IMG/VR virus record: IMGVR_UViG_3300020577_006271
Span: 32,001-96,000 of that record
DNA: 64,000 nt
Strand: one strand, 5' to 3'
DNA from: a virus
Taxonomy: Duplodnaviria; Caudoviricetes
Positions 2,606 through 57,114 of the stretch are shown piece after piece. The position numbers and the translations under genes were made by a program. Within the stretch, counting starts at the first letter, position 1. Every line of letters begins with the position of its first letter. A model generated the notes under the pieces. It made no database searches and was not told where the DNA came from. It saw nothing but the letters and a program-made list of their open reading frames with translations.

Positions 2606-3079
2606 TTAAGGTTTTTTATATTGTATTCGGGGTGGATATATTTTTAGTGATTGACGCAATACGGGTGTTCCTCTTACTACATCACTTGTCCAAGGGTGAA
2701 CTTGCGCAGTATTTAAATTATAATTTGCAGCCAATTTTTTTGCCAAAAGTGTAACTTCTACACCAGTGTTTCCATTTGTGACGTCAATCCATTTACCTAA
2801 TGCATTTTTATATTCCTTCGGATAATAAATATGTATGGTAACAGAATCCCAAGAATCGAACTGTTCTCCATATTCAACAAATATGCTTTTCGCATAACTT
2901 TCGCCGTGTGCCTGAGTTAATTCCGCTTTGATATCTCTTAAATATAATTCAATCTTTTGTAATTCAGCTTTAATTCCCGCAAGTGATGCTTCATAATATC
3001 TAGAAAATCTATCAAAGATCTCATTGTTCACTTCATTAAAAGTTGCATTTTCGTTTAAAATATTTTTAAATTTAATCAT
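2606..3079 (-). CDS. hypothetical protein with MIKFK-type leader (putative internal head protein)
   Basis: N-terminus MIKFKNILNE. Confidence 0.75.
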   Translation of the reverse strand: MIKFKNILNENATFNEVNNEIFDRFSRYYEASLAGIKAELQKIELYLRDIKAELTQAHGESYAKSIFVEYGEQFDSWDSVTIHIYYPKEYKNALGKWIDVTNGNTGVEVTLLAKKLAANYNLNTAQVHPWTSDVVRGTPVLRQSLKIYPPRIQYKKP

Positions 3080-6393: not shown

Positions 6394-8403
6394 CTATAAA
6401 CGTTTGTATTGAATGTTATCAAAAAATGTTAATATGCCAGATAATTGAGTTACCCAATCCGAATCAGCTGTAAAAGTGTGAGTCACTGACCTAACCATAA
6501 AATATGATTTTGTGTCAAAATAATTTTGTGTCAGGTGGTTTGTAGCAATGGCATTTCCAATTGTGAATCCATAACAACCATCTAATGTCACATCTAATTC
6601 TAAACCTGGATAGGTTGGTAGATCATGTTGCTTTGAATGCGATGATGGTTTTGAAATTGTTAATGTGTTAACAGCAGATTGCAACGACGATTCTTTTTCT
6701 GGGTTAAACCTAGTTTCAATTAATTCCCCCGGAACTTTAATAAGTTTTAAGACATCCGTTTGAGCCTTATTAAATGCAATTGTTCTTTTTACGTCTATCT
6801 TAGCTAGTTTATCAGGTGTGATATTGTGGACCGGGTCGCCTTGTGAAGTTTGACCTGCCATCATTGCCGATGCCATTTCAGCAGACCCAGCATTAGATCT
6901 AAGATTAATTGATCTAGATGATCCATCTCCATCTATTCCGTTAAATACAATGCAATCTAATTTCTTAGCATATCCATTTCGTTGATCAACAATGACCAAA
7001 TAATCTGTTTTTTCAGGATGTTGTGTTAATGTTAAATTTATAGATCCACCGGATGCTTCTTTAATCGTTGTGAAAATTTTTGAAAGAAAAACCATAACAT
7101 TTATTGATTCGCCAGTTTTTGTTTTATCATTGATTTTGTCTGAGTTGGATTCTTCTTTTTTGGCTGCTTCATCTAAAGCATCTAATATAACAGAGCGTTC
7201 TAATATAATTTTTTTAAAATCAATAATATTTGACGGACCATTTGATCCTTCGACAGCCTTTATTGGCTCCAGACCTGCTCCGCCTACTTTTTCAAAATTG
7301 ATTCCGAGTTCATCTCCTACTGAATATGTTCCAGCATAATTTCCTTTGTTATTTCCTGCGAATACGCATTGCGTAGGTAATCCAGAAATAATTGCTTTAC
7401 TGATATAAGATTTAGAAAGAACTGGATCAAATACAATGGCGGTTGGTGAAAATTGTGCTGCCAATATAACATCATCTTTATATTTCATATGCGTATGGCC
7501 CATAATTAATCGGTTGACAATGTATTCTAACGTGTAATAGACAATATTTACCGATGAAGTAGTTGACGACGCACCTAAATAACCTTCTTGTATAGATTGC
7601 CAAGCTTTACCGACTCTACCGCTGAGATATGTTTTATGTGATGCCTTGTAAACTATAACAGCACCCGGTTTAGAACTAAATCCCTTTTCTGACAATGTAT
7701 ATGTATGATTTCTATCGGGAATGAAAGACACTCCATCATTACCAGACAAATTTATATCGTCGATTGCTTTTTGCCCATTTTGTTGGGCGTCGAAGGTCAT
7801 TAATTCTAATAACCCTTGAACATTTAGGGTTTCTCTGCCTGACAAATATGACAATCCATTAAATTTACCACCAACCAATGTCTCTAATTTCTTTAAAGCT
7901 TCTGTTGCTCTAACTGCAGAACCCTTAACAATGTAACATCCTTGGTCATCTGTGTTAAATTCAAATGTAACCAACAAGAATTTTTCAACCTTAATGTATT
8001 GTTGATCTACTATCCAATGCTTAGGATAACCAAACTCAGCTGAAATCTCAGTTCCATATCGACAAAAGACTTTCTCTATTTCCTTGAATGTTTCCCGATC
8101 AAAACATTTAATTGACCACGACAATCCTTCTTTAAACCCATATTCAGTGGGAGAATATGTAATTGTTGCTTCTTCAAGTGATGGATAAGGTTTAAATTTA
8201 TTGTATTGAGATTCTGGGAATGAATCAGATAATCTTACTCCTGGAACCGTTGCACTTCCACCTTCACCCTTTCCAGTCAATTTAAAGTAGGCTGGGTTTC
8301 TTGTTGCGGCTTTATAATGCGGACCGTTTTTAAAAAGGTCCAGGCGTTTTTGTAAGACTCCTAACGCACCATGAGTTGGATTATTTCTATAAACGTTTTC
8401 CAT
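6394..8403 (-). CDS. putative baseplate hub protein (gp27/gpD-like)
   Basis: C-terminal LELDVTLDGCYGFTIGN...FMVRSVTHT..WVTQLSG pattern; position downstream of the gp53-like gene. Confidence 0.55.
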   Translation of the reverse strand: MENVYRNNPTHGALGVLQKRLDLFKNGPHYKAATRNPAYFKLTGKGEGGSATVPGVRLSDSFPESQYNKFKPYPSLEEATITYSPTEYGFKEGLSWSIKCFDRETFKEIEKVFCRYGTEISAEFGYPKHWIVDQQYIKVEKFLLVTFEFNTDDQGCYIVKGSAVRATEALKKLETLVGGKFNGLSYLSGRETLNVQGLLELMTFDAQQNGQKAIDDINLSGNDGVSFIPDRNHTYTLSEKGFSSKPGAVIVYKASHKTYLSGRVGKAWQSIQEGYLGASSTTSSVNIVYYTLEYIVNRLIMGHTHMKYKDDVILAAQFSPTAIVFDPVLSKSYISKAIISGLPTQCVFAGNNKGNYAGTYSVGDELGINFEKVGGAGLEPIKAVEGSNGPSNIIDFKKIILERSVILDALDEAAKKEESNSDKINDKTKTGESINVMVFLSKIFTTIKEASGGSINLTLTQHPEKTDYLVIVDQRNGYAKKLDCIVFNGIDGDGSSRSINLRSNAGSAEMASAMMAGQTSQGDPVHNITPDKLAKIDVKRTIAFNKAQTDVLKLIKVPGELIETRFNPEKESSLQSAVNTLTISKPSSHSKQHDLPTYPGLELDVTLDGCYGFTIGNAIATNHLTQNYFDTKSYFMVRSVTHTFTADSDWVTQLSGILTFFDNIQYKRL

Positions 8404-8873
8404 TATAGTGTGTTAAAATATTGTTCAAGTTCGTAATCAGTCTTAAAATATTTTATGTCTTTGGGCTTATAATGCACCATTTCTCTACCCTTAATAATAA
8501 CACCATCATAACCTTTTTTCATCATTTCATCTTCAATTGTAAATCCTTTCGCTTCAAAATTTCTAACATCCATTACTGATGAGTCCAATCCAAGAGCATC
8601 TTGTTTAAGTTTATGCCTATAAATTTCCCAACTATTCAAACCATCAAAAATTTTAGGGTTTTTAGGAATTGCATTTACAACAAAATACACATCACCATAT
8701 TGTTTGGCCATTGATTTATTTGATAGTGGAACAGTATATAATCCATTACCAATTGAACCATAAACTTGATTATCACTCCCCAAATTTTTTATACCTCGTA
8801 ACGTTACATTTTTTCGTTTCCAATTCTTAAAATCTGAAGTTGATTCTAAAATAATATCTTTAAATTTAATCAT
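8403..8873 (-). CDS. MIKFK-leader protein with ADP-ribosyltransferase-like (ART-PolyVal-type) domain
   Basis: MIKFKDIILE leader; LRG..GNGLYT..AKQYG..PKNP..GYDGVII..EMVHYKPKDIK. Confidence 0.65.
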   Translation of the reverse strand: MIKFKDIILESTSDFKNWKRKNVTLRGIKNLGSDNQVYGSIGNGLYTVPLSNKSMAKQYGDVYFVVNAIPKNPKIFDGLNSWEIYRHKLKQDALGLDSSVMDVRNFEAKGFTIEDEMMKKGYDGVIIKGREMVHYKPKDIKYFKTDYELEQYFNTL

Positions 8874-16447: not shown

Positions 16448-16681
16448 TTATTTTCGTATTTCTTTTTTGTATGTTATATTAACTCTACCTTTGCACATAG
16501 GAGAATCTGGATATGCTTTACAATACCAAGACATATTGTCTTCTAATTGCTTAATATCCTGTTGTACTTTTTTAAATTCTCCTTCTAATCCAGGATCGGT
16601 TACTTTTATGGATGCTGCTATTTTTCCCATTTCAGCTGACATGCGTCTGGATATTAGCATTTTTATTAGTGATCCTATCAT
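16448..16681 (-). CDS. hypothetical protein
   Basis: 77 aa ORF, ATGA overlap with upstream gene. Confidence 0.55.
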   Translation of the reverse strand: MIGSLIKMLISRRMSAEMGKIAASIKVTDPGLEGEFKKVQQDIKQLEDNMSWYCKAYPDSPMCKGRVNITYKKEIRK

Positions 16682-16905
16682 GATTTATTATAGGTATTTC
16701 GAATTGAACGGAATTCACTGATGTCACTTAATGCTTCACTTAAATTATCCATCAGGATACTGTATTTTTCCTTAAGATCCGTTTCAATGTGCAACGCTTT
16801 CATTTTTTTCAAACTTGTCCAAATATCAGTTTCGACATCGTTTAATTGTTTATCGATTTCGTCTGTCATGTAAGACTCGAAAAGTATGTCTTTAAATTTT
16901 ACCAT
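16678..16905 (-). CDS. hypothetical protein with MIKFK-type leader
   Basis: MVKFKDILFE from ATG 16905. Confidence 0.7.
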   Translation of the reverse strand: MVKFKDILFESYMTDEIDKQLNDVETDIWTSLKKMKALHIETDLKEKYSILMDNLSEALSDISEFRSIRNTYNKS

Positions 16906-21540: not shown

Positions 21541-21747
21541 TTATCGTATCCTAGGTTCAATATAATCTAACGCTTCAAGGGCATCGCGTTTAGTATATAT
21601 TTGACGTCCAGTTTTTTCTTGAGCTAAATTAATTAATTTTTGCAGGGCCACTTTATATTCAGTTCCCGCTTTCCTTTTTTGCATAATTGATAGCAAATTA
21701 TCAATTTCTGAATTAGACTCATTTAATATATCTTTAAATTTTATCAT
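21541..21747 (-). CDS. hypothetical protein with MIKFK-type leader
   Basis: MIKFKDILNES. Confidence 0.75.
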   Translation of the reverse strand: MIKFKDILNESNSEIDNLLSIMQKRKAGTEYKVALQKLINLAQEKTGRQIYTKRDALEALDYIEPRIR

Positions 21748-21793: not shown

Positions 21794-22192
21794 CTACAAT
21801 TTGGTTTGTCTAATTATTGAATCGGGTATTATTAATCTAGGAAATTCTTTCCTATCAAACCATTTAAAATTTAAATTGAATTTGGTATTTAATAGGTTTT
21901 CAATCGGTTCTATAAATGATTCTAAATCATTAGGTATATTTCTACGATTGATAAAATATATTTCTACCGCATTCCATGCATCTTTAGTTGCGTAAACTTT
22001 ATAATCACCAGCGGATGTAATTTTTCGTTGAGTTTTACCATCGGTTCCTCTGATTATAGTTGGGGCCGCCCTTTCTATATAACCCCCTTTTAAATCAGTC
22101 GTTGACATATATTTTTCAATCAACCTTTTAATTTGTTGTTGAACTCGAATCACATCATTTGATTCTAATAATATATCTTTAAATTTTATCAT
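21794..22192 (-). CDS. hypothetical protein with MIKFK-type leader
   Basis: MIKFKDILLES. Confidence 0.75.
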   Translation of the reverse strand: MIKFKDILLESNDVIRVQQQIKRLIEKYMSTTDLKGGYIERAAPTIIRGTDGKTQRKITSAGDYKVYATKDAWNAVEIYFINRRNIPNDLESFIEPIENLLNTKFNLNFKWFDRKEFPRLIIPDSIIRQTKL

Positions 22193-30613: not shown

Positions 30614-32251
30614 TTAAATTGTATTAACACCTTCAATAAAGATCTTTCCATAAAATTCAGGTCGTAACATTTTCTTAGCGTATCTAGTAGATATCGCCTT
30701 TCTTGGCACGAAGTTAATTGGATCCAAAATGGTTGGTGTTGTCATCAATGGAATATAAGGACTGTAAACAGCTCCACATTCTAAGTATGATCCACCTCTG
30801 TAACCCATTAAGATTGAATTTTCAGTCATATACGGAACTTTGTAAACATCCCATCTATTAGAAATTGTACCTACTGCGCTTGGTCCCATTCCAAATTTAC
30901 CCTTAGTTCCATCAGTTGATGCTGCGTAACCTGGAATAGATTCAAGAATAGTTGCAATAGTAGGAGAAACCACCATGAAATTGGCACCGTCAGACATTGT
31001 CAATCTTCCGATTTCATTACTCATTTTTTGAATAGTTGTACCTAATGTTTGGAACCAACTTCCCTGTGTATATGCTGCAACATTACTTGGTGTTTGCACA
31101 AAACTGTTACTAGCTTTATCATATGCAAATCCTAATCTAGCAGACCAGTGACCTGTAGATTGTGCGTTATTGTACAACATGTCTATCAATTCTAAATCGA
31201 TTTCTTTAGTAATATAATCACCAAGCAATGCAGTCATTTCTGCTTCAACATCAATTGAATGGTAAGCGTTAATGTCTTGTTCAAATTCTGTAGTCCATAC
31301 CGCTTTCAATTTTCTAGTCACCGCACTAATTGATTCAGATTTAAGTGACAAGTCTAAAGTTGGAATATCCAACGGAGCATTAGCTGGTAAGTTTGCCTCG
31401 AAGTCACCTCTTGTGATGTCAGTAGTTTCTTTATGATATGAAACGATTACTGCAGCAGCTGCGGCAAATGTTATTGCTGTTTGAGAATCTTCAAGTAACG
31501 CAATCCAATGTATATTCGTTCTGTCGGCATTAGTTCTAGTATATCCCGCCAAATGTGCTTTAATCTGAGTTCCAGCGGTATCAGTGACTGTAAATCCTCT
31601 GACTCCATGTAAATCCGGACTGGTTAATGCCGAAACCGGAGTTGTGAATTTTACTACTCTTCCTGCTGCTATTGCGTCAGTCAGTACTGCAATCCTTTCA
31701 CTGTCGAAATTCAAGTCTGCAGGTGCTGTTGCTGGAGTTACTGCTGTTATGGTTGCTGCGACTGTATTGGCAGACACGTCATTAAGTGTATATCCAAATC
31801 TACCTGGACCATATAAACCACCGGTTGCTACTTCCGCTCCGCGTCTGGCATCAGTGACACCATATAAAGAGTCTTCTTGTGAGCCTTGCTGTGACCCAGT
31901 TGTAAATCCAGGTTGTCCACTTGCGTATTTATGGTCATACCAGAATACCAATCCAGTTGGCATTGACATACTTTGTGTTGACAAGAAATCTTTTGCTGAT
32001 ATTGATGAAAATATTCTTCTTACCAATGGTAACGCAATGCCGTTCCATTCTTCAGAGCCAGCTTGAGTTGAGTTCATGTTTGCCTCACGCAACAATTGGT
32101 GTGCCTGATTTTCTAATAATTGAGCGACGTTATTTGCTTGAGTTTCATCCAACCCTTCTAGCAAACCAACTCTACCCCATTTTGCAACATTTGCAGCTAC
32201 TTCTTCTTTTCTTTTGTTGCTATTGTTGGTCATTAATGATTTTAAGTTCAT
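30614..32251 (-). CDS. major capsid protein (T4 gp23-like)
   Basis: KW..LLEG..LLENQ, LPLVRR, TRKLKAVWT, EIDLE, YSPYIPL, TRYA. Confidence 0.95.
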   Translation of the reverse strand: MNLKSLMTNNSNKRKEEVAANVAKWGRVGLLEGLDETQANNVAQLLENQAHQLLREANMNSTQAGSEEWNGIALPLVRRIFSSISAKDFLSTQSMSMPTGLVFWYDHKYASGQPGFTTGSQQGSQEDSLYGVTDARRGAEVATGGLYGPGRFGYTLNDVSANTVAATITAVTPATAPADLNFDSERIAVLTDAIAAGRVVKFTTPVSALTSPDLHGVRGFTVTDTAGTQIKAHLAGYTRTNADRTNIHWIALLEDSQTAITFAAAAAVIVSYHKETTDITRGDFEANLPANAPLDIPTLDLSLKSESISAVTRKLKAVWTTEFEQDINAYHSIDVEAEMTALLGDYITKEIDLELIDMLYNNAQSTGHWSARLGFAYDKASNSFVQTPSNVAAYTQGSWFQTLGTTIQKMSNEIGRLTMSDGANFMVVSPTIATILESIPGYAASTDGTKGKFGMGPSAVGTISNRWDVYKVPYMTENSILMGYRGGSYLECGAVYSPYIPLMTTPTILDPINFVPRKAISTRYAKKMLRPEFYGKIFIEGVNTI

Positions 32252-32270: not shown

Positions 32271-33125
32271 TTAAATAATTCCCGCTAACTTTTGTAAACG
32301 GTTTCCCGCAACAATTGGTTGGGTTGTTTTCGTAATCGTTCTACTTGCAGAAGCATTTTCTTTTAATGCCTTCAAACCAGTTGTCTCCTTATATGATTCA
32401 GTAAGAGTTGTATAAATCAATTTTGCTTCTTTAATAGTACTTGCTCTATCAAATGCCGATAACATTTTTGTTTGTTGATTTTCACTAAGTTTGAATTTTC
32501 TGTTTAGATTGGTATAATATACCAATTTGGTGTTCAACAATGTTGTCTCAGTCAATCCAGTTCTTAAAATTTTTATTGCCTTGATAGCTTCTGCCAATTT
32601 TAAGTTAGTCTTGTGTAAATCTGATTTCAAATTACGGTTTTCTTTTCGTAATTTATAAGATTCGGCCATTTCTGGTTCATCTTCTGCCATTTCTTCATCT
32701 TCCATTTCTCGTAAAATTTCGTCCAACTCGTCGTCAGTTACTGCTACGTCATCAGTTCCATAATCAGCTGCTAATGGATCAACTGGAGCCGCTGCTACTG
32801 GTGCTGCAGGAGCTACTGGAGCTACTGGTGCAGGTGCTGCTAACGGATCTTCTTCTTCTCCATCTAATTCACGTAGAATTGATTCTAATTCAAGGTCATC
32901 AGTGTCTTCAAATTCAGTGTCTTCAAATTCGTTTTCTGTAACTGTTTCATCTGACATAATGTCATCATTTTCTAAAACTTCATCTTCAGCTTCTTCAGCC
33001 AATTTGCTAGAAATCATTCTTCGCAATGGAGCTTCAAAAGATTCTTCAAGAATTGTTTTTGCATTGGCGATAGCTGCTTTTTGAACTGCCCTAGCGTCTG
33101 CAATTGCTTCGTTTAATAAACTCAT
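32271..33125 (-). CDS. prohead core/scaffold protein (gp22-like)
   Basis: MSLLNEAIADA..ANAK, acidic middle, LNTKL, RLQKLAGI; directly upstream of MCP. Confidence 0.85.
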   Translation of the reverse strand: MSLLNEAIADARAVQKAAIANAKTILEESFEAPLRRMISSKLAEEAEDEVLENDDIMSDETVTENEFEDTEFEDTDDLELESILRELDGEEEDPLAAPAPVAPVAPAAPVAAAPVDPLAADYGTDDVAVTDDELDEILREMEDEEMAEDEPEMAESYKLRKENRNLKSDLHKTNLKLAEAIKAIKILRTGLTETTLLNTKLVYYTNLNRKFKLSENQQTKMLSAFDRASTIKEAKLIYTTLTESYKETTGLKALKENASASRTITKTTQPIVAGNRLQKLAGII

Positions 33126-36753: not shown

Positions 36754-37055
36754 GTAACATAAATATTTAAATTAATCTTCAAACGAGTGCCTGCTATATT
36801 AGATTCACTAGATAGAACGCCGGTGTGATGTCCAGATCCTAATAGGGTTGTGTCTATTGTCCACACCAAATCTTTCCCTGAAATATCTAATCCACTACCA
36901 ACCTGATATATAAATTCTCCGGAATTGACATTCAATGTATAATTGGTATCAATTAATAATCCATCAATGTTAATAGTTAACGCCGTGAATTCCTGGTCGA
37001 CATACCAATCAATAACTGCCAACTGTCTATCATCGATTTCAATTACATTACTCAT
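36750..37055 (-). CDS. hypothetical beta-rich virion protein
   Basis: 101 aa ORF in operon. Confidence 0.55.
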   Translation of the reverse strand: MSNVIEIDDRQLAVIDWYVDQEFTALTINIDGLLIDTNYTLNVNSGEFIYQVGSGLDISGKDLVWTIDTTLLGSGHHTGVLSSESNIAGTRLKINLNIYVT

Positions 37056-37459
37056 AAATCGTAATAGTTTTGTAATGTTTTCCCGATATCTTCATAAGCA
37101 GCGGTCAATCTTTGATTAATTTGAGCAGCTTCTATGATAGTCTTTTCAAAAACTTTAAAAGCCTCTTTCATTTGTTTCATATGTCGAGAAACAGTTATAT
37201 CGTCAAACCAACCATCAGTCTCTGTATGGGTTACTTCTTCAGCTGAATCTACAACATATCTAATAAATTCCAGGGCTGTTTTGTATTCGCCTATATTTTG
37301 TTTAAATAATGCTGAGTAAGCTTGGTATTTTCCAAGTGAATTTAGAAACTCCTGTTTGTCCACAGTGGCAACATTTTCACCAGCTGTTTGATTTGACGTG
37401 TCAAAGACGTCTTCTGTTAAGAGATCATTTAGCAAGTGTGTTAATTTATGTCTTTTCAT
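37052..37459 (-). CDS. putative prohead core protein
   Basis: LLNDLLTE leader-like site; GWFDDITVSRHMK..YEDIG..L..YY. Confidence 0.55.
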   Translation of the reverse strand: MKRHKLTHLLNDLLTEDVFDTSNQTAGENVATVDKQEFLNSLGKYQAYSALFKQNIGEYKTALEFIRYVVDSAEEVTHTETDGWFDDITVSRHMKQMKEAFKVFEKTIIEAAQINQRLTAAYEDIGKTLQNYYDL

Positions 37460-38560: not shown

Positions 38561-39187
38561 TTATTTTCCTTTTAAATATAAGCAGCAATTTCCGCTGAGC
38601 TCACATATTATGTCGCGTATAATTAATTCTGCTTCTTCATAAATATTTTGTTTACTGTTATTCACTGATTCGTTAACTGTTAAGAATGCTCCGTGAGTTG
38701 ATGGATTGGAAACGAAATCCCAGCAAACCAATTGGAAATCATCTTCTACCTGATCAGTATCTTCATTAATCTTTTTAACCGAACCCATTCCCCTTGAAGA
38801 AATACCAACGGTTAAATCAGCTTGAATTAATTCTTTGAGAATATTCCCCGATGGGGTATTAAGAATTTCAACCTTCCCCATTAAATCATCGCCTTCCCAC
38901 CAACATTCTCGGACGACATGCGATACATTTTTCAAATTAACAACTGATGACTCCGGGTGATCCAACTCTCCATAGGCTCTTTTTTCCGCTACTTCTTTAT
39001 TAAGATAGTTGTTTACTTCCCGTTCAAGAATAGCCCGTGGATAGATTCTTTGATTTTGATTTTTAGCGTTGGCCCGTTGCAATACACCAGTTACAACCAA
39101 TCGTTTTTGTCCGTCAGTTGTAATAGATTCACTTAGGTTCTTTCTAAGTTGAAATGGCATAGTATCAATTAAGTATGTTTTCTTCAT
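38561..39187 (-). CDS. prohead core protease (T4 gp21-like)
   Basis: NQNQRIYP, GELDHP, VSH, TPSG, GISSRGMGS, DFVSNPST. Confidence 0.95.
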   Translation of the reverse strand: MKKTYLIDTMPFQLRKNLSESITTDGQKRLVVTGVLQRANAKNQNQRIYPRAILEREVNNYLNKEVAEKRAYGELDHPESSVVNLKNVSHVVRECWWEGDDLMGKVEILNTPSGNILKELIQADLTVGISSRGMGSVKKINEDTDQVEDDFQLVCWDFVSNPSTHGAFLTVNESVNNSKQNIYEEAELIIRDIICELSGNCCLYLKGK

Positions 39188-49554: not shown

Positions 49555-52500
49555 TTATATATATCGTATTAACGATTTATTATCATGTTTACTAATCGTC
49601 AATATATTATCAGCTACATCCTTAAGTGATTCTAAATGCGTTATGCACATTATGAAATCAAATTTATCTTTCAATTTGTCCAATAGCATATATACATTAG
49701 AAATTGAATTGGCATCTAATACCCCAAATCCTTCATCAATGGCAATGAAGTTTGGTCTCGCTAAGGATGTTACTTCAATTAATGCCACCCTAGAAGCTAC
49801 AGACACTAAGAATCTTTCCATTCCGGATGCTAATTCAACTGGCCATTTTTGGTCTCCATACACCAAGTGGCAATATATACTTTTTTCATCATTTGAAAAT
49901 TCAACTTGAAAATCACAAATTCCATGCAATAAATTATTAACTTCACTTTCAATTACCGGCATAATCTGCTTTAAAATATTGTATGGAATGCCATTTGATG
50001 ATACTGCATTAGCATAAGTTTGATACATCAATATTTCATTGGTTAATTTATTAAGTTCAATCTTATTATCGTTATTTTGTTTAAGTGATTCTTGTAATTT
50101 ACTAACATCAACTTTGAAATTAGTCATTAAAATTTCTAGTTTTTTTGACCGATCTTTCAAATCCTGGATTTGTTTTTCATTTTCTTCGATTATATTGCGT
50201 AAACGTATATTTTCGGTATATTGTTTTTCATTAGCGGTAAAGTCTCTTAATTCTTGTTCTACTCTAGCGATCGATGATTTCAATTCCTTAAATCTAAGTC
50301 TATACACTTCAACAGTCTGTTGGGCAGTTTGTAATTTAGATTCTATTAGCTGTTTATTATTAATTTTGTTGTGTAATTCTTTAAATTCACCAAGTATCAA
50401 TTTATACTCATTCATTTGATCTAACGAATTTACCAAATCAGCCGAAATTGAATTGAATTCGTTTACCAATTGTGGATATTTTTCTTTAGCGAGTTTTGCA
50501 GACTTAACAAAATCACTATTGCAACAAAATTCACAGTTTGGATCATATTCGTATGTTTCAAGAATTTGAATTTCTTTTTGATACGAAGTCATTTTATTTT
50601 TAATGGTGTTTAGCTTCGTTTCAGTTTCCTTTATCTTGGCAGTTAATGAAGTAGATTCAAATTTAATTTTTTTCTCTCTGTCATAATCAATTACAGTTGT
50701 TCCACATTTATCTATGTCTGAATTTAACTGTTTTATTGTGCTGTTTAAATCAGGAATTAACGTATTAACCAACACCGATAACTCATGTTCCATATCTTGT
50801 AATGAGTTTTCAATTTGGATCCTATTGCGAGTTGTTGGAATATCAACGATGGATAATAACGATGCTTTAATAATAGCATCTAACTCGGAAATCTGAGTGT
50901 GACATTCTGATACAGTAACTTCGTATTTGTTAATTAACTGCGTCTTTCTATTTATTTCACCTATAGTTTCAGATTCAGTTACTAAATTTACCTTGGTTGA
51001 TAAATTCGACACCACTGCTTGTTTATCTTTTATGATACCTTTAGCAAGCCAATTTAAATCGGTGAACAGCTTTAGATCCAAAAACGAATATAATAATTCT
51101 TTTCGTTCACGTTGTGTTTTAAATATAAAATTTCGGTTGTCGGTTTGTGTGCTTAAGGCGGTGAGCATGAAATCATCATACGATCCTAAATAAGAACGAA
51201 TAATTTTGTTCGTATCGTCTCGATCTTTTCCACGAAGTTGTTCGGATGATGAATAAAAATCAACGTTTACTCTAACCTTCCTGTCTTTATTGGCTGACCC
51301 CTGTCGTATAATGGTATATTCTTCATTATCAATTTCCAACCCGACTTTGACTACAAATGAATCGCTCTGATTGTTCAAAATCTCATCAGCTTTAAATGTC
51401 TTAGAACATTTATCGAACAAAGCAAATGATAATACTTCTAATAATGATGATTTTCCTGCTGCATTGGGTGCAAATATACCTTGAATTCCAGACATGTTTC
51501 TAAAGTCAACTGAATTATTAGATCCATATGAAAACATGTTGTCAAATTCCATATACAACAATTTCCAAGTCGTATTTCTGGCATTTTTATCTAGATTATT
51601 TAGTTGTGTGTTAACCGTTCGATTGATGTGCCTAATTCCATCAACAAAGTCGGTATCTTTATTATCAACAAATTCAGTAATCAATTGGTTTTGATATTCA
51701 ATATCTCTAACATTGCCAATCGACAAATCCGCTGTTTTTATATCGGAGTGATTGGTTAATTTTCGTAATGAATATTCTTTAAATACATGTTTAGATTTTA
51801 ACTTATCTAGAAATTGATGTATTATATCTAATTCAGTTTGACGATGTTTAACCTTAACTCTTAAATACTTAGGCAACAACGTGAAATATTCGGGATTAGT
51901 TACTAATTGGTTATCGTCGAATTCAAATGTCGCGTAAGCAATATCATTTTCAATTTCAACAAATTCATTTGTACCTGCGGCGATATTCCAAACTATTAAT
52001 CCATGGTGTTTAACAGTTTCTCCATAATTTTGTTGGATTAAACTCGACGAATACGCCATAGTTTTGGCCGGATTTAAATATTGCTGCTTATGAATGTCTC
52101 CAAACATTCCATAATCATAGCCCCGAAAGTTTTTGATCGTAACGGCATCATTTTCGATCACATGGTTTAAATCGGTGGTAGCACCCATAATTGCCCCGTG
52201 ATGTAATGCAATTTTAATATCAGATTTTGGCAAATCGGATGCTGGTGGCCATTGATCAATGGTATCAAATACTGAACAGACTCCAAAGGATATATTAGAA
52301 TCCGGTGTTAATTTATAAATTCCAGAATTTTTCCAATAATGTAAACGCCGATGTTTTAAATTTTCTACAATCGGAGACAAAGCATCAAGTCTAGAATTAT
52401 TATTTAAATTTGTGTCATGGTTACCACATATTAATATAGTTGGACATATATCAGCACATGATTTTAAGAATCTACCAACCATGTGTACCAATTCAGGGCT

Positions 52501-52671
52501 TAGATCGGTCTTTTGGTGGACAATATCTCCTGCTAAATAAATTACAGAGCCAGGAGTTTTATTATCCTTAATATATTTGTATAGACGTTTAAATACATTA
52601 TTGTATTCGGTATGTCTTTGGTAATTTCGGATATGTACATCCGATATATGAAATATTTTATCAATTATCAT
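49555..52671 (-). CDS. fused Mre11/SbcD nuclease - Rad50/SbcC ATPase (gp47-gp46)
   Basis: HISDVH, GDIVH, GNHD, GDIH; APNAAGKS, CEFC hook, ASGME, IDEGFG. Confidence 0.92.
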   Translation of the reverse strand: MIIDKIFHISDVHIRNYQRHTEYNNVFKRLYKYIKDNKTPGSVIYLAGDIVHQKTDLSPELVHMVGRFLKSCADICPTILICGNHDTNLNNNSRLDALSPIVENLKHRRLHYWKNSGIYKLTPDSNISFGVCSVFDTIDQWPPASDLPKSDIKIALHHGAIMGATTDLNHVIENDAVTIKNFRGYDYGMFGDIHKQQYLNPAKTMAYSSSLIQQNYGETVKHHGLIVWNIAAGTNEFVEIENDIAYATFEFDDNQLVTNPEYFTLLPKYLRVKVKHRQTELDIIHQFLDKLKSKHVFKEYSLRKLTNHSDIKTADLSIGNVRDIEYQNQLITEFVDNKDTDFVDGIRHINRTVNTQLNNLDKNARNTTWKLLYMEFDNMFSYGSNNSVDFRNMSGIQGIFAPNAAGKSSLLEVLSFALFDKCSKTFKADEILNNQSDSFVVKVGLEIDNEEYTIIRQGSANKDRKVRVNVDFYSSSEQLRGKDRDDTNKIIRSYLGSYDDFMLTALSTQTDNRNFIFKTQRERKELLYSFLDLKLFTDLNWLAKGIIKDKQAVVSNLSTKVNLVTESETIGEINRKTQLINKYEVTVSECHTQISELDAIIKASLLSIVDIPTTRNRIQIENSLQDMEHELSVLVNTLIPDLNSTIKQLNSDIDKCGTTVIDYDREKKIKFESTSLTAKIKETETKLNTIKNKMTSYQKEIQILETYEYDPNCEFCCNSDFVKSAKLAKEKYPQLVNEFNSISADLVNSLDQMNEYKLILGEFKELHNKINNKQLIESKLQTAQQTVEVYRLRFKELKSSIARVEQELRDFTANEKQYTENIRLRNIIEENEKQIQDLKDRSKKLEILMTNFKVDVSKLQESLKQNNDNKIELNKLTNEILMYQTYANAVSSNGIPYNILKQIMPVIESEVNNLLHGICDFQVEFSNDEKSIYCHLVYGDQKWPVELASGMERFLVSVASRVALIEVTSLARPNFIAIDEGFGVLDANSISNVYMLLDKLKDKFDFIMCITHLESLKDVADNILTISKHDNKSLIRYI

Positions 52672-53646: not shown

Positions 53647-53877
53647 CTACAATTTCTTAAATCCAGGTTTAACAACAATGGTATCACGTGGTACTATAAC
53701 TTCTAAATGTATTTTGATAATTATAGGTTGCCCATATGGAGTTCTGGTGAAATGTGTCGCTATGTATTCCCCATTCTCAGAAAATTTACCTAAGGTTATA
53801 CCATATTTAAGTGTATCCATCTGTCCAATACATAAACTGGACATAAATAATAAAACAAATATTATAATCTTTTTCAT
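53647..53877 (-). CDS. small secreted protein
   Basis: Signal peptide MKKIIIFVLLFMSSLCIG followed by Q. Confidence 0.6.
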   Translation of the reverse strand: MKKIIIFVLLFMSSLCIGQMDTLKYGITLGKFSENGEYIATHFTRTPYGQPIIIKIHLEVIVPRDTIVVKPGFKKL

Positions 53878-53885
53878 GATATATG

Positions 53886-54182
53886 TTAAAATGGTTCTGA
53901 ATTTAAATGGTTATCCAAAATAATGTCTAAAGCTGTGGAATAATTAGCATCTTCTAGAGCTCTAAGAGTTTCATTCGAAATTGAGTCTAGTCCGGCAGCC
54001 TTTAATGCCGCAATAAATTTAGGTTCAATTTTAAGTAAATCTACTCCAGATACCGATTTTGGTAAATATCTGGCAGATAATTTCTTCACAATAGCCATAA
54101 TTTTTAAAGCTGCATCTGGATATTCAGATGTTTCAGATATCCTGTTATTAGCAATGTTTTCTAATATTCGTTGTAGTTTCAT
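53886..54182 (-). CDS. hypothetical protein with leader-like N-terminus
   Basis: MKLQRILEN..RISE; AAGGA upstream. Confidence 0.6.
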   Translation of the reverse strand: MKLQRILENIANNRISETSEYPDAALKIMAIVKKLSARYLPKSVSGVDLLKIEPKFIAALKAAGLDSISNETLRALEDANYSTALDIILDNHLNSEPF

Positions 54183-54190
54183 AATAATCC

Positions 54191-54295
54191 TTAGTTAATA
54201 TTTAATAATTCTTTTAATTCTTTATAAACACCGTTTGGTATTTGAGCATTTTGTGCAAATTGTATTAAATCGTTATATATTTTTTCGTAATTCAT
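54191..54295 (-). pseudogene. truncated Mob-type HNH homing endonuclease N-terminus
   Basis: MNYEKIYNDLIQFAQ...YKE then stop, before any HHIIP motif. Confidence 0.55.
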
Positions 54296-54728
54296 ATAAT
54301 AATTCAGATTTGTTTGATATGTTAGAAAATTTGTTACTTCCGATAGATTCGTTGTAATAATAATCAGTTAATATAACATGATAATGATATTGGAAAAATA
54401 TTTCTAGGTAATTTACATGACTCTTGGTTTTCCCAAACATTAATATTTCAAATTTAAATTTGTCTTTACCGATATTTTTAATGTCTTCGTTTAAAACCTT
54501 TGATGAGCCAGTGTATTTAGCCCAATCCGATTCTTTGGTTATCACTTCTTTCCGTTTCCTTCCGGCAGCTTTTTGAACCTTGGTTAATGCCTTTCTTCTT
54601 ACGGAAATAGCATATTTTCTCCCGATGTACATTTTACCATTTTCTAAATTGGTAATTTTATAAATAAATCCAGCTACTCCTTGTGGCAGTTCTTCTATTG
54701 GTTCGTTATTGTAGGTCCAGTGACTCAT
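54273..54728 (-). CDS. GIY-YIG endonuclease
   Basis: GFIYKITN..YIGRK..SDW..YTGSS..E..YYN. Confidence 0.85.
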   Translation of the reverse strand: MSHWTYNNEPIEELPQGVAGFIYKITNLENGKMYIGRKYAISVRRKALTKVQKAAGRKRKEVITKESDWAKYTGSSKVLNEDIKNIGKDKFKFEILMFGKTKSHVNYLEIFFQYHYHVILTDYYYNESIGSNKFSNISNKSELLYELRKNI

Positions 54729-55060
54729 GATACTTTCTTTATATTTTTAGGTTCGAAAACTAAATAATCAGTTCTATCGGATTCTGGCAATATTACACCA
54801 TCATATCCATCAGCAATTAACTCGTCTATTGAATATTTATCATATTCATCCCATCCAGCTGGATTTTTAAGTGTTATTTCACGCTTCATTATATATTTTC
54901 CACCAGCTGCGCCTACTTCTCTATTCTTTAATGCTGTTACATTGTCAGTGAACCAGAACCCGTCCCAAGCATGATCTAATGAAAAATTATCAAATTTAGT
55001 ATCAGTTCCATGGTAAACAATATATTTATTTTCCCGTAATATGTCTTTGAATTTAATCAT
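54725..55060 (-). CDS. MIKFK-leader protein with ADP-ribosyltransferase-like (ART-PolyVal-type) domain
   Basis: MIKFKDILRE; VYHGT..FDNF..GFWFT..LKNP..GYDGVI..YLVFEPKNIK. Confidence 0.75.
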   Translation of the reverse strand: MIKFKDILRENKYIVYHGTDTKFDNFSLDHAWDGFWFTDNVTALKNREVGAAGGKYIMKREITLKNPAGWDEYDKYSIDELIADGYDGVILPESDRTDYLVFEPKNIKKVS

Positions 55061-55541
55061 CCGCACTCATTACCTTTAAAGGTGGATCAAATTTTGCGAC
55101 TATTCCTCCTACTGCAGAAAATGAAACATTTGAACCTTTGGCTTTTGCAAATTTAGTTAAATAATATTTGTATAAGGTATCTCTTCTGTTACCAGATTCA
55201 TCATCTTCCTTTTTCGGATCATATTTAATGTAAATTAATGCTTTTTCGTCATACTTTTTGGCATATCTCGTTAACCATTCTTGAGTTGCACCTAATACAA
55301 AAGACATAATTTTTAGTGCATTATTTTGATTAGTCATCTCTGTACTACCGTTAGCATAAAAATCAATAGATATAGCTATTTTATCAGATATATTTATCAA
55401 TAATCGGATGTCTACGAAATAGGTATCATTTAAATATTTAAACGAAGCAGTTCCGCCGTTTTCATTGATTGTGAATGTGCTTCCTGGAGCAATTTGGATA
55501 TTATCTCCAATTTCAGTTAATATGTCTTTAAATTTAATCAT
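55053..55541 (-). CDS. hypothetical protein with MIKFK-type leader
   Basis: MIKFKDILTE. Confidence 0.75.
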   Translation of the reverse strand: MIKFKDILTEIGDNIQIAPGSTFTINENGGTASFKYLNDTYFVDIRLLINISDKIAISIDFYANGSTEMTNQNNALKIMSFVLGATQEWLTRYAKKYDEKALIYIKYDPKKEDDESGNRRDTLYKYYLTKFAKAKGSNVSFSAVGGIVAKFDPPLKVMSADD

Positions 55542-55881
55542 CAAACCTCGTTTTATTTATCTCATCCCATAAACTATTATTTGGTAAGTTAGGGCCAAGT
55601 CCTGATGATAAATTTGAATTGAGTATAAAATCAGTGGCAATTTGTATTCCAACATATTTAATATCAGGCGATGCTTCCTTAAATGATACCATATCCGATT
55701 CTGTAAACTCATTCATATTTTTATTCACCAAAAATGTTGGTGTCGGATCTATAACGATATTATCGTCTTTAACTATCCATCCATGGTTAATAGCCGACGG
55801 GAAGTCTTTAATATCTATTAATAATTCGTTTTCATGTTTAAATTTTCCATGCAACAATTCAATTATACTAAATTTAATCAT
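55534..55881 (-). CDS. degenerate MIKF-leader protein with partial papain/transglutaminase-like domain
   Basis: MIKFSIIE; HGWIV..IDPT but no Cys in the ORF. Confidence 0.5.
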   Translation of the reverse strand: MIKFSIIELLHGKFKHENELLIDIKDFPSAINHGWIVKDDNIVIDPTPTFLVNKNMNEFTESDMVSFKEASPDIKYVGIQIATDFILNSNLSSGLGPNLPNNSLWDEINKTRFDD

Positions 55882-56414
55882 ATATTATCAATTATAAAAT
55901 TCATTGTAGCATCTTTACCTTTCAAATCTTTCCAATGTCTAGAATTAATAAAAGTAGAATATAAACCATTCATATTAGCAATTGCTTCAGCTTCCCATGG
56001 TAGTTTCGTGTATGATATGTGATCTGATTTCATTAGCTTATTATAATCCCTAATGTTAATATATTCTTTACCTTTCCATATGATGGCGGTATAATCTTTA
56101 TTTGGCAGAAGTTCTTTTTTAGAAACCTGCTTAACATGAGTTAATTCATGTATCATAGCTTGTATAATGCGCCGATACGATTGATTTGGATTGAAATGTA
56201 AGTAAAATTTACCATTATTTACGGAGTTTGAATTTAATGATATATCACCAATCATTTCCGTTGCATCTTTTTTCTTTACTATAATCTTAGCATCAAATTC
56301 ATATCTATCCATCATAAACGAAACTACTGATTTAACCAGCATTGTTTCATATGGTTTCAATTTTAATGATGTACCAAAAAGGTCTTCAGTTAATATATCT
56401 TTAAATTTAATCAT
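55878..56414 (-). CDS. MIKFK-leader zincin metallopeptidase
   Basis: MIKFKDILTE; IHELTHVKQ..PWEAEA. Confidence 0.8.
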   Translation of the reverse strand: MIKFKDILTEDLFGTSLKLKPYETMLVKSVVSFMMDRYEFDAKIIVKKKDATEMIGDISLNSNSVNNGKFYLHFNPNQSYRRIIQAMIHELTHVKQVSKKELLPNKDYTAIIWKGKEYINIRDYNKLMKSDHISYTKLPWEAEAIANMNGLYSTFINSRHWKDLKGKDATMNFIIDNI

Positions 56415-56433
56415 TTTTTCCTTATTTATTCCT

Positions 56434-57114
56434 TTAATCGTATTCTTCTAAATATTGAAAACAGTATTTTAAAAATTTTTTCCATGTGTCGTTTTGTTCT
56501 TCAGGATCGTAGAAATAATCCCAATACTTCCAAAAAGCATTAGATTCAGCAGCGTCGATTTTTGAATTTTTCGGATTTCTTAATAATTGTAAGACATCAT
56601 CTTTAGTGTAACCGTTGGACATTAAATCAACAATGGCTTCGTTTGCGTGTGCCATAATTTCATGAACATTACTTAAATACTCGGTATTATTTGTTGCGTC
56701 AGAAGATGGTTTCATTTTACCTCCAGATTTATCAAGTTGATTTACATGTGTCAATTCGTGGGTTAATATACCTTTAACAGTTCTAACAAATGTAACGTAA
56801 TAATATTGATCTAAAATATCTATTAGCTCGTCGAATACATATATTGTTATGTTTCCACCTGAATCAACTGAGCCTCCATATATACCTACATCTTGATAAG
56901 CTGGCGGATTACCGTCAATATCTCCCATAACAAATTCAACATTATATTCGTGAACAGCGTCGTTAAATAATTCAACTGCATCAATAGTAGATTCACATTC
57001 TAAAAATTTATCCTTTAATGGTATTAATTTTCCAGAAACGTGAGATGCAATAGATTTAATATCGGATTGATCACGTTCTAATATTAATTTTGCTATATCT
57101 TTAAATTTAATCAT
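56434..57114 (-). CDS. MIKFK-leader zincin metallopeptidase
   Basis: MIKFKDIAKLILE; THELTHVNQ..YL...HEIMAHA. Confidence 0.8.
   Translation of the reverse strand: MIKFKDIAKLILERDQSDIKSIASHVSGKLIPLKDKFLECESTIDAVELFNDAVHEYNVEFVMGDIDGNPPAYQDVGIYGGSVDSGGNITIYVFDELIDILDQYYYVTFVRTVKGILTHELTHVNQLDKSGGKMKPSSDATNNTEYLSNVHEIMAHANEAIVDLMSNGYTKDDVLQLLRNPKNSKIDAAESNAFWKYWDYFYDPEEQNDTWKKFLKYCFQYLEEYD

Follow-up and report, generated by a model that had tools for sequence, protein, structure and literature searches.

Leader-tagged enzyme genes in an uncultured T4-like phage: a probable internal-protein locus of the T4 type

Phage proteins that are injected together with the DNA act before phage gene expression and are prime counter-defence candidates; to our knowledge, few of them have been identified in phages other than T4, P1, N4 and the giant ones. 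How does such a protein gain access to the phage head? Work on T4 has shown that the first 10 residues of the internal protein IPIII are enough for packaging, that this capsid targeting sequence (CTS) directs targeting via residues 4 and 7 and processing via residues 8 and 10, that the prohead protease gp21 cuts after the Glu of L/I-x-E, and that a CTS can bring foreign proteins into the T4 head (PMC9026906). T-even internal proteins form a diverse set whose conservation is limited to the capsid targeting sequence (PMC3012670). Here we describe an array of five leader-bearing genes at 54725-57114 in a 64,000-nucleotide stretch of viral DNA, referred to here as the window (bases 32001-96000 of IMG/VR record IMGVR_UViG_3300020577_006271, which holds 162,683 bp and is about 88% complete). 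We propose, with a probability of roughly 0.7, that this array represents an internal-protein locus of the T4 type, with enzymatic cargo, in a distant T4-like phage.

The array consists of five tightly packed open reading frames (ORFs) on the minus strand, followed by a homing endonuclease gene:

P5, 56434-57114, minus strand: 226 residues; extended leader MIKFKDIAKLILE and a zincin-like domain, HELTH at 119-123
P4, 55878-56414, minus strand: 178 residues; leader MIKFKDILTE and a small zincin-like domain, HELTH at 89-93
P3, 55534-55881, minus strand: 115 residues; truncated leader MIKFSIIE and NHGW...DPT; mosaic remnant
P2, 55053-55541, minus strand: 162 residues; leader MIKFKDILTE
P1, 54725-55060, minus strand: 111 residues; leader MIKFKDILRE and a minimal ART-PolyVal domain, YHGT...GYDG
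SegE-like GIY-YIG homing endonuclease, 54273-54728, minus strand: PF19835, E 2.4e-30

This bears out the initial annotation, which had described five tandem leader genes with two HELTH proteins, one HGW..DPT and one YHGT..GYDG protein; its ORFs, coordinates and motifs were all recovered. All five products are single-domain proteins. Neighbouring array genes overlap by 4 or 8 nt, the sole exception being a 19-nt spacer between P5 and P4 with an AAGGA ribosome site. The start of the SegE-like gene overlaps the end of P1 by 4 nt, and the gene has the same position in two related contigs, L010 and L028.

What is the shared leader, and is it kept as a peptide or as DNA? Twelve genes in the 162.7-kb genome carry it. 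Four array genes start with MIKFKDI, and P1, P2 and P4 with MIKFKDIL-x-E; the leader of P5 exceeds the others by 3 residues. The window copies are as follows:

57085-57114 (P5), minus strand: leader-coding repeat
56385-56414, minus strand: leader-coding repeat
55870-55881, minus strand: truncated copy of the repeat
55512-55541, minus strand: leader-coding repeat
55031-55060, minus strand: leader-coding repeat
2606-3079, minus strand: further leader-tagged gene, no Pfam family
8403-8873, minus strand: further leader-tagged gene, no Pfam family
16678-16905, minus strand: further leader-tagged gene, no Pfam family
21541-21747, minus strand: further leader-tagged gene, no Pfam family
21794-22192, minus strand: further leader-tagged gene, no Pfam family

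Among the ten canonical copies, nucleotide identity is 81% over codons 1-10 versus 33% over codons 11-30. Codons 1-8 and 10 depart from the consensus in 13 synonymous changes versus 4 conservative replacements (I/V, D/N, L/I), and codon 9 is free, with seven different forms. With most of this variation silent and codon 9 unconstrained, the leader is under selection as a peptide. The bodies of the array proteins are mutually unrelated except for short HExxH and GYDG stretches. In the AlphaFold (AF2) models of P4 and P5 the leader is a low-confidence N-terminal tail, the only such part of either model, which fits a detachable propeptide. Two other origins of a common N-terminus were considered and rejected: a secretion signal, as the tag is charged and not hydrophobic, and recent gene duplication, as the bodies are unrelated. 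Pfam and PHROG scans of the other seven leader genes of the genome, and of the cargo of sister phages, were mostly empty.

At the positions mapped in T4, the leader has Phe4, Ile7, Leu8 and Glu10, with position 9 free. In the T4 genome (NC_000866), ipII and ipIII start with MKTYQEFIAE and ipI with MKTFKEF. Compared residue by residue, the leader matches the T4 capsid targeting sequence at its functionally mapped positions and ends in the gp21 motif. The I-L-x-E stands at residues 7-10 in P1, P2 and P4, ILE at 11-13 in P5, and only IIE at 6-8 in P3. The locus and the T4 system thus have in common a tag of about 10 residues on unrelated proteins (aromatic at position 4, hydrophobic at 7, L/I-x-E at 8-10), the presence of a gp21-type protease in the genome, and a constant tag with cargo that differs from one related phage to the next. 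The locus differs in the tag itself (MIKFKDILxE as opposed to MKTYQEFIAE), in having 12 tagged genes, five of them in one coupled array, and in its cargo: T4 internal proteins are small and basic, whereas the products here are recognisable enzyme domains and mostly acidic. The phage is also only distantly related to T4, the nearest cultured capsid proteins (45-49% identical) being those given below.

Does the phage encode the machinery that would read such a tag? The head genes of the window include:

38561-39187, minus strand: prohead protease of the T4 gp21 type (PF03420 Peptidase_S77, E 3.2e-34)
30614-32251, minus strand: major capsid protein of the gp23 family (PF07068, E 6e-62)
32271-33125, minus strand: acidic scaffold-like protein adjoining the capsid gene, with 13 [LI]xE sites including two ILRE copies

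A test for the head module matched PF07230 at E 6.3e-66, alongside the S77 and gp23 families, and the genome encodes a T4-type gp20 portal, a T4-type large terminase and a tail sheath. Among cultured phages, Microcystis phage Mel-JY01 (49% identity) and the Flavobacterium ‘immuto’ phages (45%) have the closest capsid proteins, and megablast with 12 kb against cultured phages gave no match. Family matches thus identify a T4-type head module, and they place the source phage as a distant T4-like myovirus whose S77 protease is the enzyme expected to cut the leaders. Of note, two genes downstream of the prohead protease lies a 135-residue gene (37052-37459, minus strand) whose N-terminal LNDLLTEDVFD resembles the P4 junction DILTEDLFG; its product is possibly a core protein that shares this cleavage site. 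Many of the head-internal ejection proteins of giant phages (phiKZ, 201phi2-1, SPN3US) likewise carry N-terminal propeptides cut after Glu by a gp21-related protease, but these are mostly longer than 100 residues, with the motif A/S-x-E and no common short tag.

If the leader is an address read by a phage's own assembly machinery, its wording should be specific to the phage, and such phage-specific dialects are found. Most members of the P4 family start with MIKLKxILxEDL, and distant ones with MKTFKKFIYE or MIKTYKQFVNE. On the contig of the MKTFKKFIYE member, the adjoining gene starts with the same ten residues; on that of a P5 relative starting MKTFLQFQEA, four more genes start with MKLYRQFVAE, MLTFSQFIVE, MLSFRQFLAE and MKDFSQFINE. 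An [LI]xE ending at residues 7-16 is present in 68 of the 115 stand-alone P5 relatives, against about 9% for stretches of equal length elsewhere in the same proteins, and in 79 of 87 P4 relatives. In these comparisons the tag tracks the phage and not the cargo family.

Taken as a T4-type internal-protein locus, the array would work as follows. The tag would dock each protein onto the scaffolding core of the assembling prohead, the S77 (gp21-type) protease would cut after the Glu of L-x-E, and the mature proteins would remain inside the head until they pass into the next host cell together with the DNA. There, the cargo of P1 would be expected to act as an NAD+-using modifier of host proteins, and that of P4 and P5 as Zn metallopeptidases acting on host or defence proteins. 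The locus itself evolves by exchanging cassettes at the leader-coding repeats and through illegitimate recombination.

Of the cargo, whose domains are identified at the level of motif and family, P1 is the member with a named family. The initial annotation had called it an ADP-ribosyltransferase (ART), and this holds: P1 matches PF18760 (ART-PolyVal) at E 2.2e-11 and 45.1 bits, above the cut-off of 31.2 (45.9 bits in the genome search). The defining mark of ART-PolyVal is an H-Y-D triad in its active site (Iyer et al. 2017, PMC5512222), of which P1 retains the His (YHGT) and the Asp (GYDG); ADP-ribosyltransferase activity is plausible, not assured. The closest described parallel is T4 Alt, an ART with a short N-terminal propeptide that is removed by gp21 and delivered with the DNA (PMC9026906, PMC5512222). 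Alt, however, is of the R-S-E clade and about 75 kDa, whereas P1 is a 101-residue ART of the H-Y-D (Tox-ART-HYD2/ART-PolyVal) clade. The leader-tagged gene at 8403-8873 (minus strand) encodes a 156-residue protein of the baseplate region whose GYDGVII...PKDIK end is like that of P1 (E 6e-5); it is without the His of YHG and without a Pfam match, and may be a degenerate or divergent ART.

P4 and P5 had been annotated as two zincin peptidases. P5 has no Pfam or PHROG match, yet 239 representatives at E<=1e-3 in the representative library are related to it, and H119, E120, H123, Q126 and E152 are invariant among 60 relatives. Its AF2 model (predicted local distance difference test, pLDDT, 92.5) has a helix, three strands, the HExxH helix (103-129) and the E152 helix (150-166), which is the zincin core topology as described by Iyer et al. 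(PMC5512222). The P4 family counts 120 clusters at 43-98% identity with the leader conserved, and H89, E90, H93, Q96, W140 and E141 (HELTH plus a downstream Glu) are invariant among 25 sequences; its matches are phrog_16532 and phrog_10499, two PHROGs to which no function is assigned. In the P4 model (pLDDT 88.7, residues 1-14 below 50) the HExxH helix spans 80-98 and the E141 helix 139-156, with a beta-hairpin insert after the HExxH helix. Foldseek searches, which the initial annotation had proposed, put zincins on top for both proteins, at best E-values of only 0.017 and 0.26. The Foldseek top hit of P4 is abylysin (E 0.017, root-mean-square deviation 2.8 Å over 72 columns, a weak match), and the rest of its list is mostly zincins: BlaR1, selecase, jannalysin, M48, SprT/Spartan, IrrE and CapP. 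For P5, minigluzincins lead the Foldseek search of the PDB (best E 0.26, weak). In the Atlas fold search the first three matches of P5 are unnamed viral clusters of its own family at template-modelling (TM) scores of 0.70-0.79, and all the named ones are zincin families at TM 0.31-0.46 (DUF2268, M78, M48, DA1, DUF5700, SprT), the TM normalised by match length reaching 0.53 for a short SprT-like cluster. When the P5 model was compared with 48,161 chains by VIA-align, CLC channels came first at Z 5.4, a match that amounts to noise for a helical protein; against cultured phages, tblastn with P5 produced a single marginal match; and PDB sequence searches with P4, P5 and the P5 profile returned nothing meaningful. 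Both proteins share with the minigluzincins (selecase, abylysin, jannalysin) and with M48, M56, M78, SprT and DUF2268 the HExxH helix, the third-Glu helix and the three-stranded sheet; these small zincins are the top structural matches of both models, but weak ones and without membership in any of their sequence families, and the beta-hairpin insert of P4 sets it apart from them.

How are the two related to each other? The families align by hhalign at 83.5% probability from the leader to the HExxH helix. A protein of the Tenacibaculum jumbo phage pT24, BPT24_172 (L033:2770-3345; 191 residues, beginning MKTILEYF and listed as a hypothetical protein), matches the P4 profile at E 2.5e-19 and the P5 profile at E 4.5e-5 over the HExxH-Glu region. 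We take P4 and P5 to be distant branches of a single undescribed zincin-like superfamily, and we infer peptidase activity for both. MPTase-PolyVal (PF18818), the metallopeptidase domain of polyvalent proteins, gave no match at E<=1 for P4 or P5, nor in a six-frame search of the genome. The zincin assignment is thus upheld by the invariant HExxH/Glu set and the core topology, but not by membership in MPTase-PolyVal.

P3 and P2 are of another kind. P3 is, by alignment, a three-piece recombination scar: four leader codons; 65 nt that are 98.5% identical (blastn) to the 3' part of another cargo gene of contig L028; and the 3' two thirds of a 160-residue Cys...His...Asp gene of the P0272 type, starting at the DFPSAINHGW segment. 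Microhomologies of 3-5 nt mark the junctions. P0272, the intact 160-residue relative of P3 in L028, has a full leader and a Cys (RFCYENA) ahead of NHGW...DPT, while P3 lacks Cys altogether. For both proteins, Pfam, PHROG and PDB sequence searches gave no match; the closest named Atlas clusters are YunG-like at 0.85, a lead only, and BLASTP of P3 against a Cys-His-Asp protein of L010 gave a non-significant E of 0.17. The earlier description of P3 as a papain-like remnant was therefore right about the remnant, a mosaic without Cys, while the papain-like part has only the Cys...His...Asp order of P0272 behind it and no family or fold match. P2, which had been listed as an unknown, stays so in the Pfam and PHROG scans. 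Its nearest Atlas clusters are unnamed and viral, with DUF6934 on just 12% of the members of one cluster; this lead is unconfirmed, BLASTP of P2 against the DUF6934-bearing fusion P0054 finding no similarity. A search for related loci in IMG/VR returned no relatives of P0272 or of P2.

Iyer et al. described the polyvalent proteins of phages and conjugative elements, and the initial annotation saw the array as one of these deconstructed into single-domain effectors. What do the two have in common? The P5 domain is elsewhere embedded in multidomain proteins of 700-1800 residues, with the following partners:

P0018, P0054: ART-PolyVal
P0034: GNAT and NUDIX
P0038: InPase
P0057: LigT/Acb1-like phosphoesterase and GNAT
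P0074, P0029: LigT alone
P0127: type IB topoisomerase

The contigs of two of these fusions have a phage-like look, but are short. In L010 an ART and the P5 orthologue are adjacent genes, and in L043 a sub-threshold ART lies two genes from a P5 relative. Because P1 is an ART-PolyVal and the P5 domain is found fused to ART, GNAT, NUDIX, InPase, LigT and topoisomerase I, the cargo, judged by its domain families, shares a domain pool with the polyvalent proteins. The likeness extends to the ART-PolyVal, the zincin-like metallopeptidase, the GNAT of a sister phage and the predicted delivery with the invading DNA (PMC5512222). The locus differs in having one domain per separately tagged gene instead of one multidomain polypeptide, and in that neither zincin-like protein matches MPTase-PolyVal. 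Nothing indicates that a polyvalent protein was taken apart here, and Iyer et al. argue for the opposite direction, accretion of solo domains (PMC5512222); of the deconstruction reading the shared domain pool stands and the direction does not. Papain-like domains, which had been named as typical components of polyvalent proteins, are not among the four peptidase superfamilies that Iyer et al. list for them (PMC5512222). The T4 internal-protein and CTS frame, which the initial annotation did not name, fits better. Somewhat short of even odds, in our estimate, is the further proposition that one pool of invasion-stage effectors is delivered by two interchangeable address systems, the cleavable single tags of T4-like phages and, in other phages and conjugative elements, the strings of the polyvalent proteins.

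A comparison with close relatives shows how the cargo changes. The 31-kb contig L028 has about 97.5% backbone identity to the window, and cargo was compared between the same flanks, a tail-associated 520-residue gene and the primase:

Window: P5, P4, P3, P2, P1, SegE
L028: two other tagged genes, P4, a SegE/ART chimeric ORF, P0272, P2, P1, SegE
L010 (more distant): P5, ART, a 122-residue HELTH protein, SegE and four more tagged genes including a GNAT

The window and L028 cease to be homologous about 20 nt into the P5 leader and become so again at the P4 leader, which points to a swap bounded by leader repeats. The leader DNA ATGATTAA contains TGA and TAA, i.e. stops in both other frames, and these are used at three junctions: the ends of P4, P3 and P2 fall inside the leader of the next gene (55878-55881, 55534-55541 and 55053-55060). 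A cassette set before a leader would consequently be terminated in two of three frames. The alignments show mosaicism and mark the locus as a hot spot of cassette exchange, which the embedded SegE homing endonuclease possibly promotes. The PeSL regulatory cassettes of T4-type genomes (PMC2839356) are similar in that short repeats flank variable genes and mark replacement points between close relatives; the repeat here, however, is the coding 5' end of a gene and not an intergenic promoter-stem-loop.

Several further features of the locus deserve mention. The chimeric ORF of L028 (L028:7666-8004, 112 residues) fuses the first ~56 residues of a SegE-like endonuclease with the C-terminal half of an ART-PolyVal domain, the join falling in an ...AAG... 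stretch that both share, with Pfam matches to both halves, and is a direct trace of illegitimate recombination in the locus. Two tagged cargo genes of L028 absent from the window (L028:6174-6638 and L028:6635-7093) have no Pfam, PHROG or PDB match; one contains DGHHR (ParB/sulfiredoxin-like by eye) and the other YRG...SVS...ENE, the R-S-E order of ADP-ribosyltransferases. A 98-residue ORF at 53886-54182 (minus strand), replaced in L028, starts with MKLQRILEN, possibly a degenerate tag with ILE at 6-8. Between array and primase, and conserved in L028, lies a 76-residue ORF (53647-53877, minus strand) with a signal peptide ending in Cys (MKKIIIFVLLFMSSLCIGQ...); it has the look of a small lipoprotein and may be of the superinfection-exclusion type. 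At 49555-52671 (minus strand) a single 1038-residue ORF has an N-terminus of the Metallophos (Mre11/gp47-like) type and a body of the SMC/AAA_23 (Rad50/gp46-like) type, a fusion kept in L010 and L028 where T4 has two genes.

Could the leader have another role? The tag might direct entry into the prohead while its bearers are assembly-stage core components, like T4 gp67 and gp68, and not injected effectors. Several gp21-cut core proteins of T4 are indeed cleared from the head (PMC9026906), several leader genes here sit among tail and head genes, and Iyer et al. noted that packaged zincins may process other proteins and not attack the host (PMC5512222). We nevertheless regard this as unlikely: the bodies are conflict-type enzyme domains (ART, zincin and the GNAT of a sister phage) and not scaffold-like coiled coils, the zincin of P5 is fused elsewhere to ART, NUDIX and LigT domains of the effector type, and the cargo is hypervariable between near-identical phages, which is unexpected of assembly parts. 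Alternatively, the shared 5' end may be a DNA or mRNA module (a recombination site, a translational coupling element or a self-punctuating junction) encoding a peptide without a sorting role. The out-of-frame stops of the repeat, the coincidence of mosaic breakpoints with leaders and the habit of T4-type phages to shuffle genes at short conserved regulatory cassettes (PMC2839356) speak for it. The mostly synonymous variation and free codon 9, however, mark a peptide motif and not a nucleic-acid motif, other phages keep the peptide pattern with other codons or residues (MIKLK..., MKTFKKF..., MLTFSQF...), and the match to the T4 tag is residue by residue, so that a role in nucleic acid alone is very improbable; the two roles are not exclusive, and the repeat may also serve as a recombination substrate. 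Least convincing is a leader acting as recognition sequence for a modifying enzyme such as a radical S-adenosylmethionine (SAM)/SPASM maturase, to which we give next to no weight. MoaA/SPASM-like radical-SAM genes do lie within 10 kb of tagged genes in the distant contigs L042 and L043, but the only radical-SAM-like gene of the genome, a 276-residue ORF outside the window (G000:C1:160139-160969), is QueE-like, of the 7-deazaguanine pathway (its best NCBIfam matches are all QueE, far below cut-offs). No relative of the L042 enzyme was found in the genome, which is not conclusive for a record 88% complete, and the tag ends in the motif of a protease encoded by the same phage.

The proposal of a T4-type internal-protein locus has its own difficulties, and the following observations weigh against it. 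The isoelectric points (pI) of the mature proteins are 4.5 (P5), 9.3 (P4), 4.6 (P3), 6.5 (P2) and 4.9 (P1), versus 9.0-9.7 for T4 IPI-III; most of the cargo is thus acidic, unlike the DNA-associated basic internal proteins of T4, as would suit assembly parts. A basic pI is not required by the targeting mechanism, however, because foreign proteins are packaged via the CTS (PMC9026906). The zincin fold matches of P4 and P5 are all below the usual significance thresholds. In P1 and two orthologues a Trp (GFWFTD; Trp37 in P1) occupies the strand-2 Tyr position of GIYFTS/GLYFSP in the fused relatives. The T4 late-promoter motif TATAAATA is not enriched, and a scan for sigma-70 promoters and terminators gave no operon-defining signal above chance. 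Finally, the literature search found no virion proteome for pT24 or other cultured relatives.

What would an internal-protein locus of this kind mean for T4-like phages? The principle is known from T4; what the locus adds is its particular cargo, a connection of tagged solo domains with polyvalent fusions, and a picture of cassette turnover at the nucleotide level. That the zincin of P5 occurs both as a tagged solo protein and in polyvalent-type fusions lends indirect support to the packaging and injection that Iyer et al. predicted for polyvalent proteins (PMC5512222). It also suggests that the role of these zincins goes beyond cutting their own polyprotein, because the tagged solo form has nothing to cut apart. 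P4 and P5 are abundant, conserved and unannotated, and are candidates for new protease families. Should the idea of two address systems for one effector pool be true, these families (120 and 239 clusters) would be new injected metalloproteases directed against host or defence proteins, and the whole injected proteome of a T4-like phage could be read from its tag dialect. A tag readable in sequence would let injected proteins be listed in uncultured T4-like phages.

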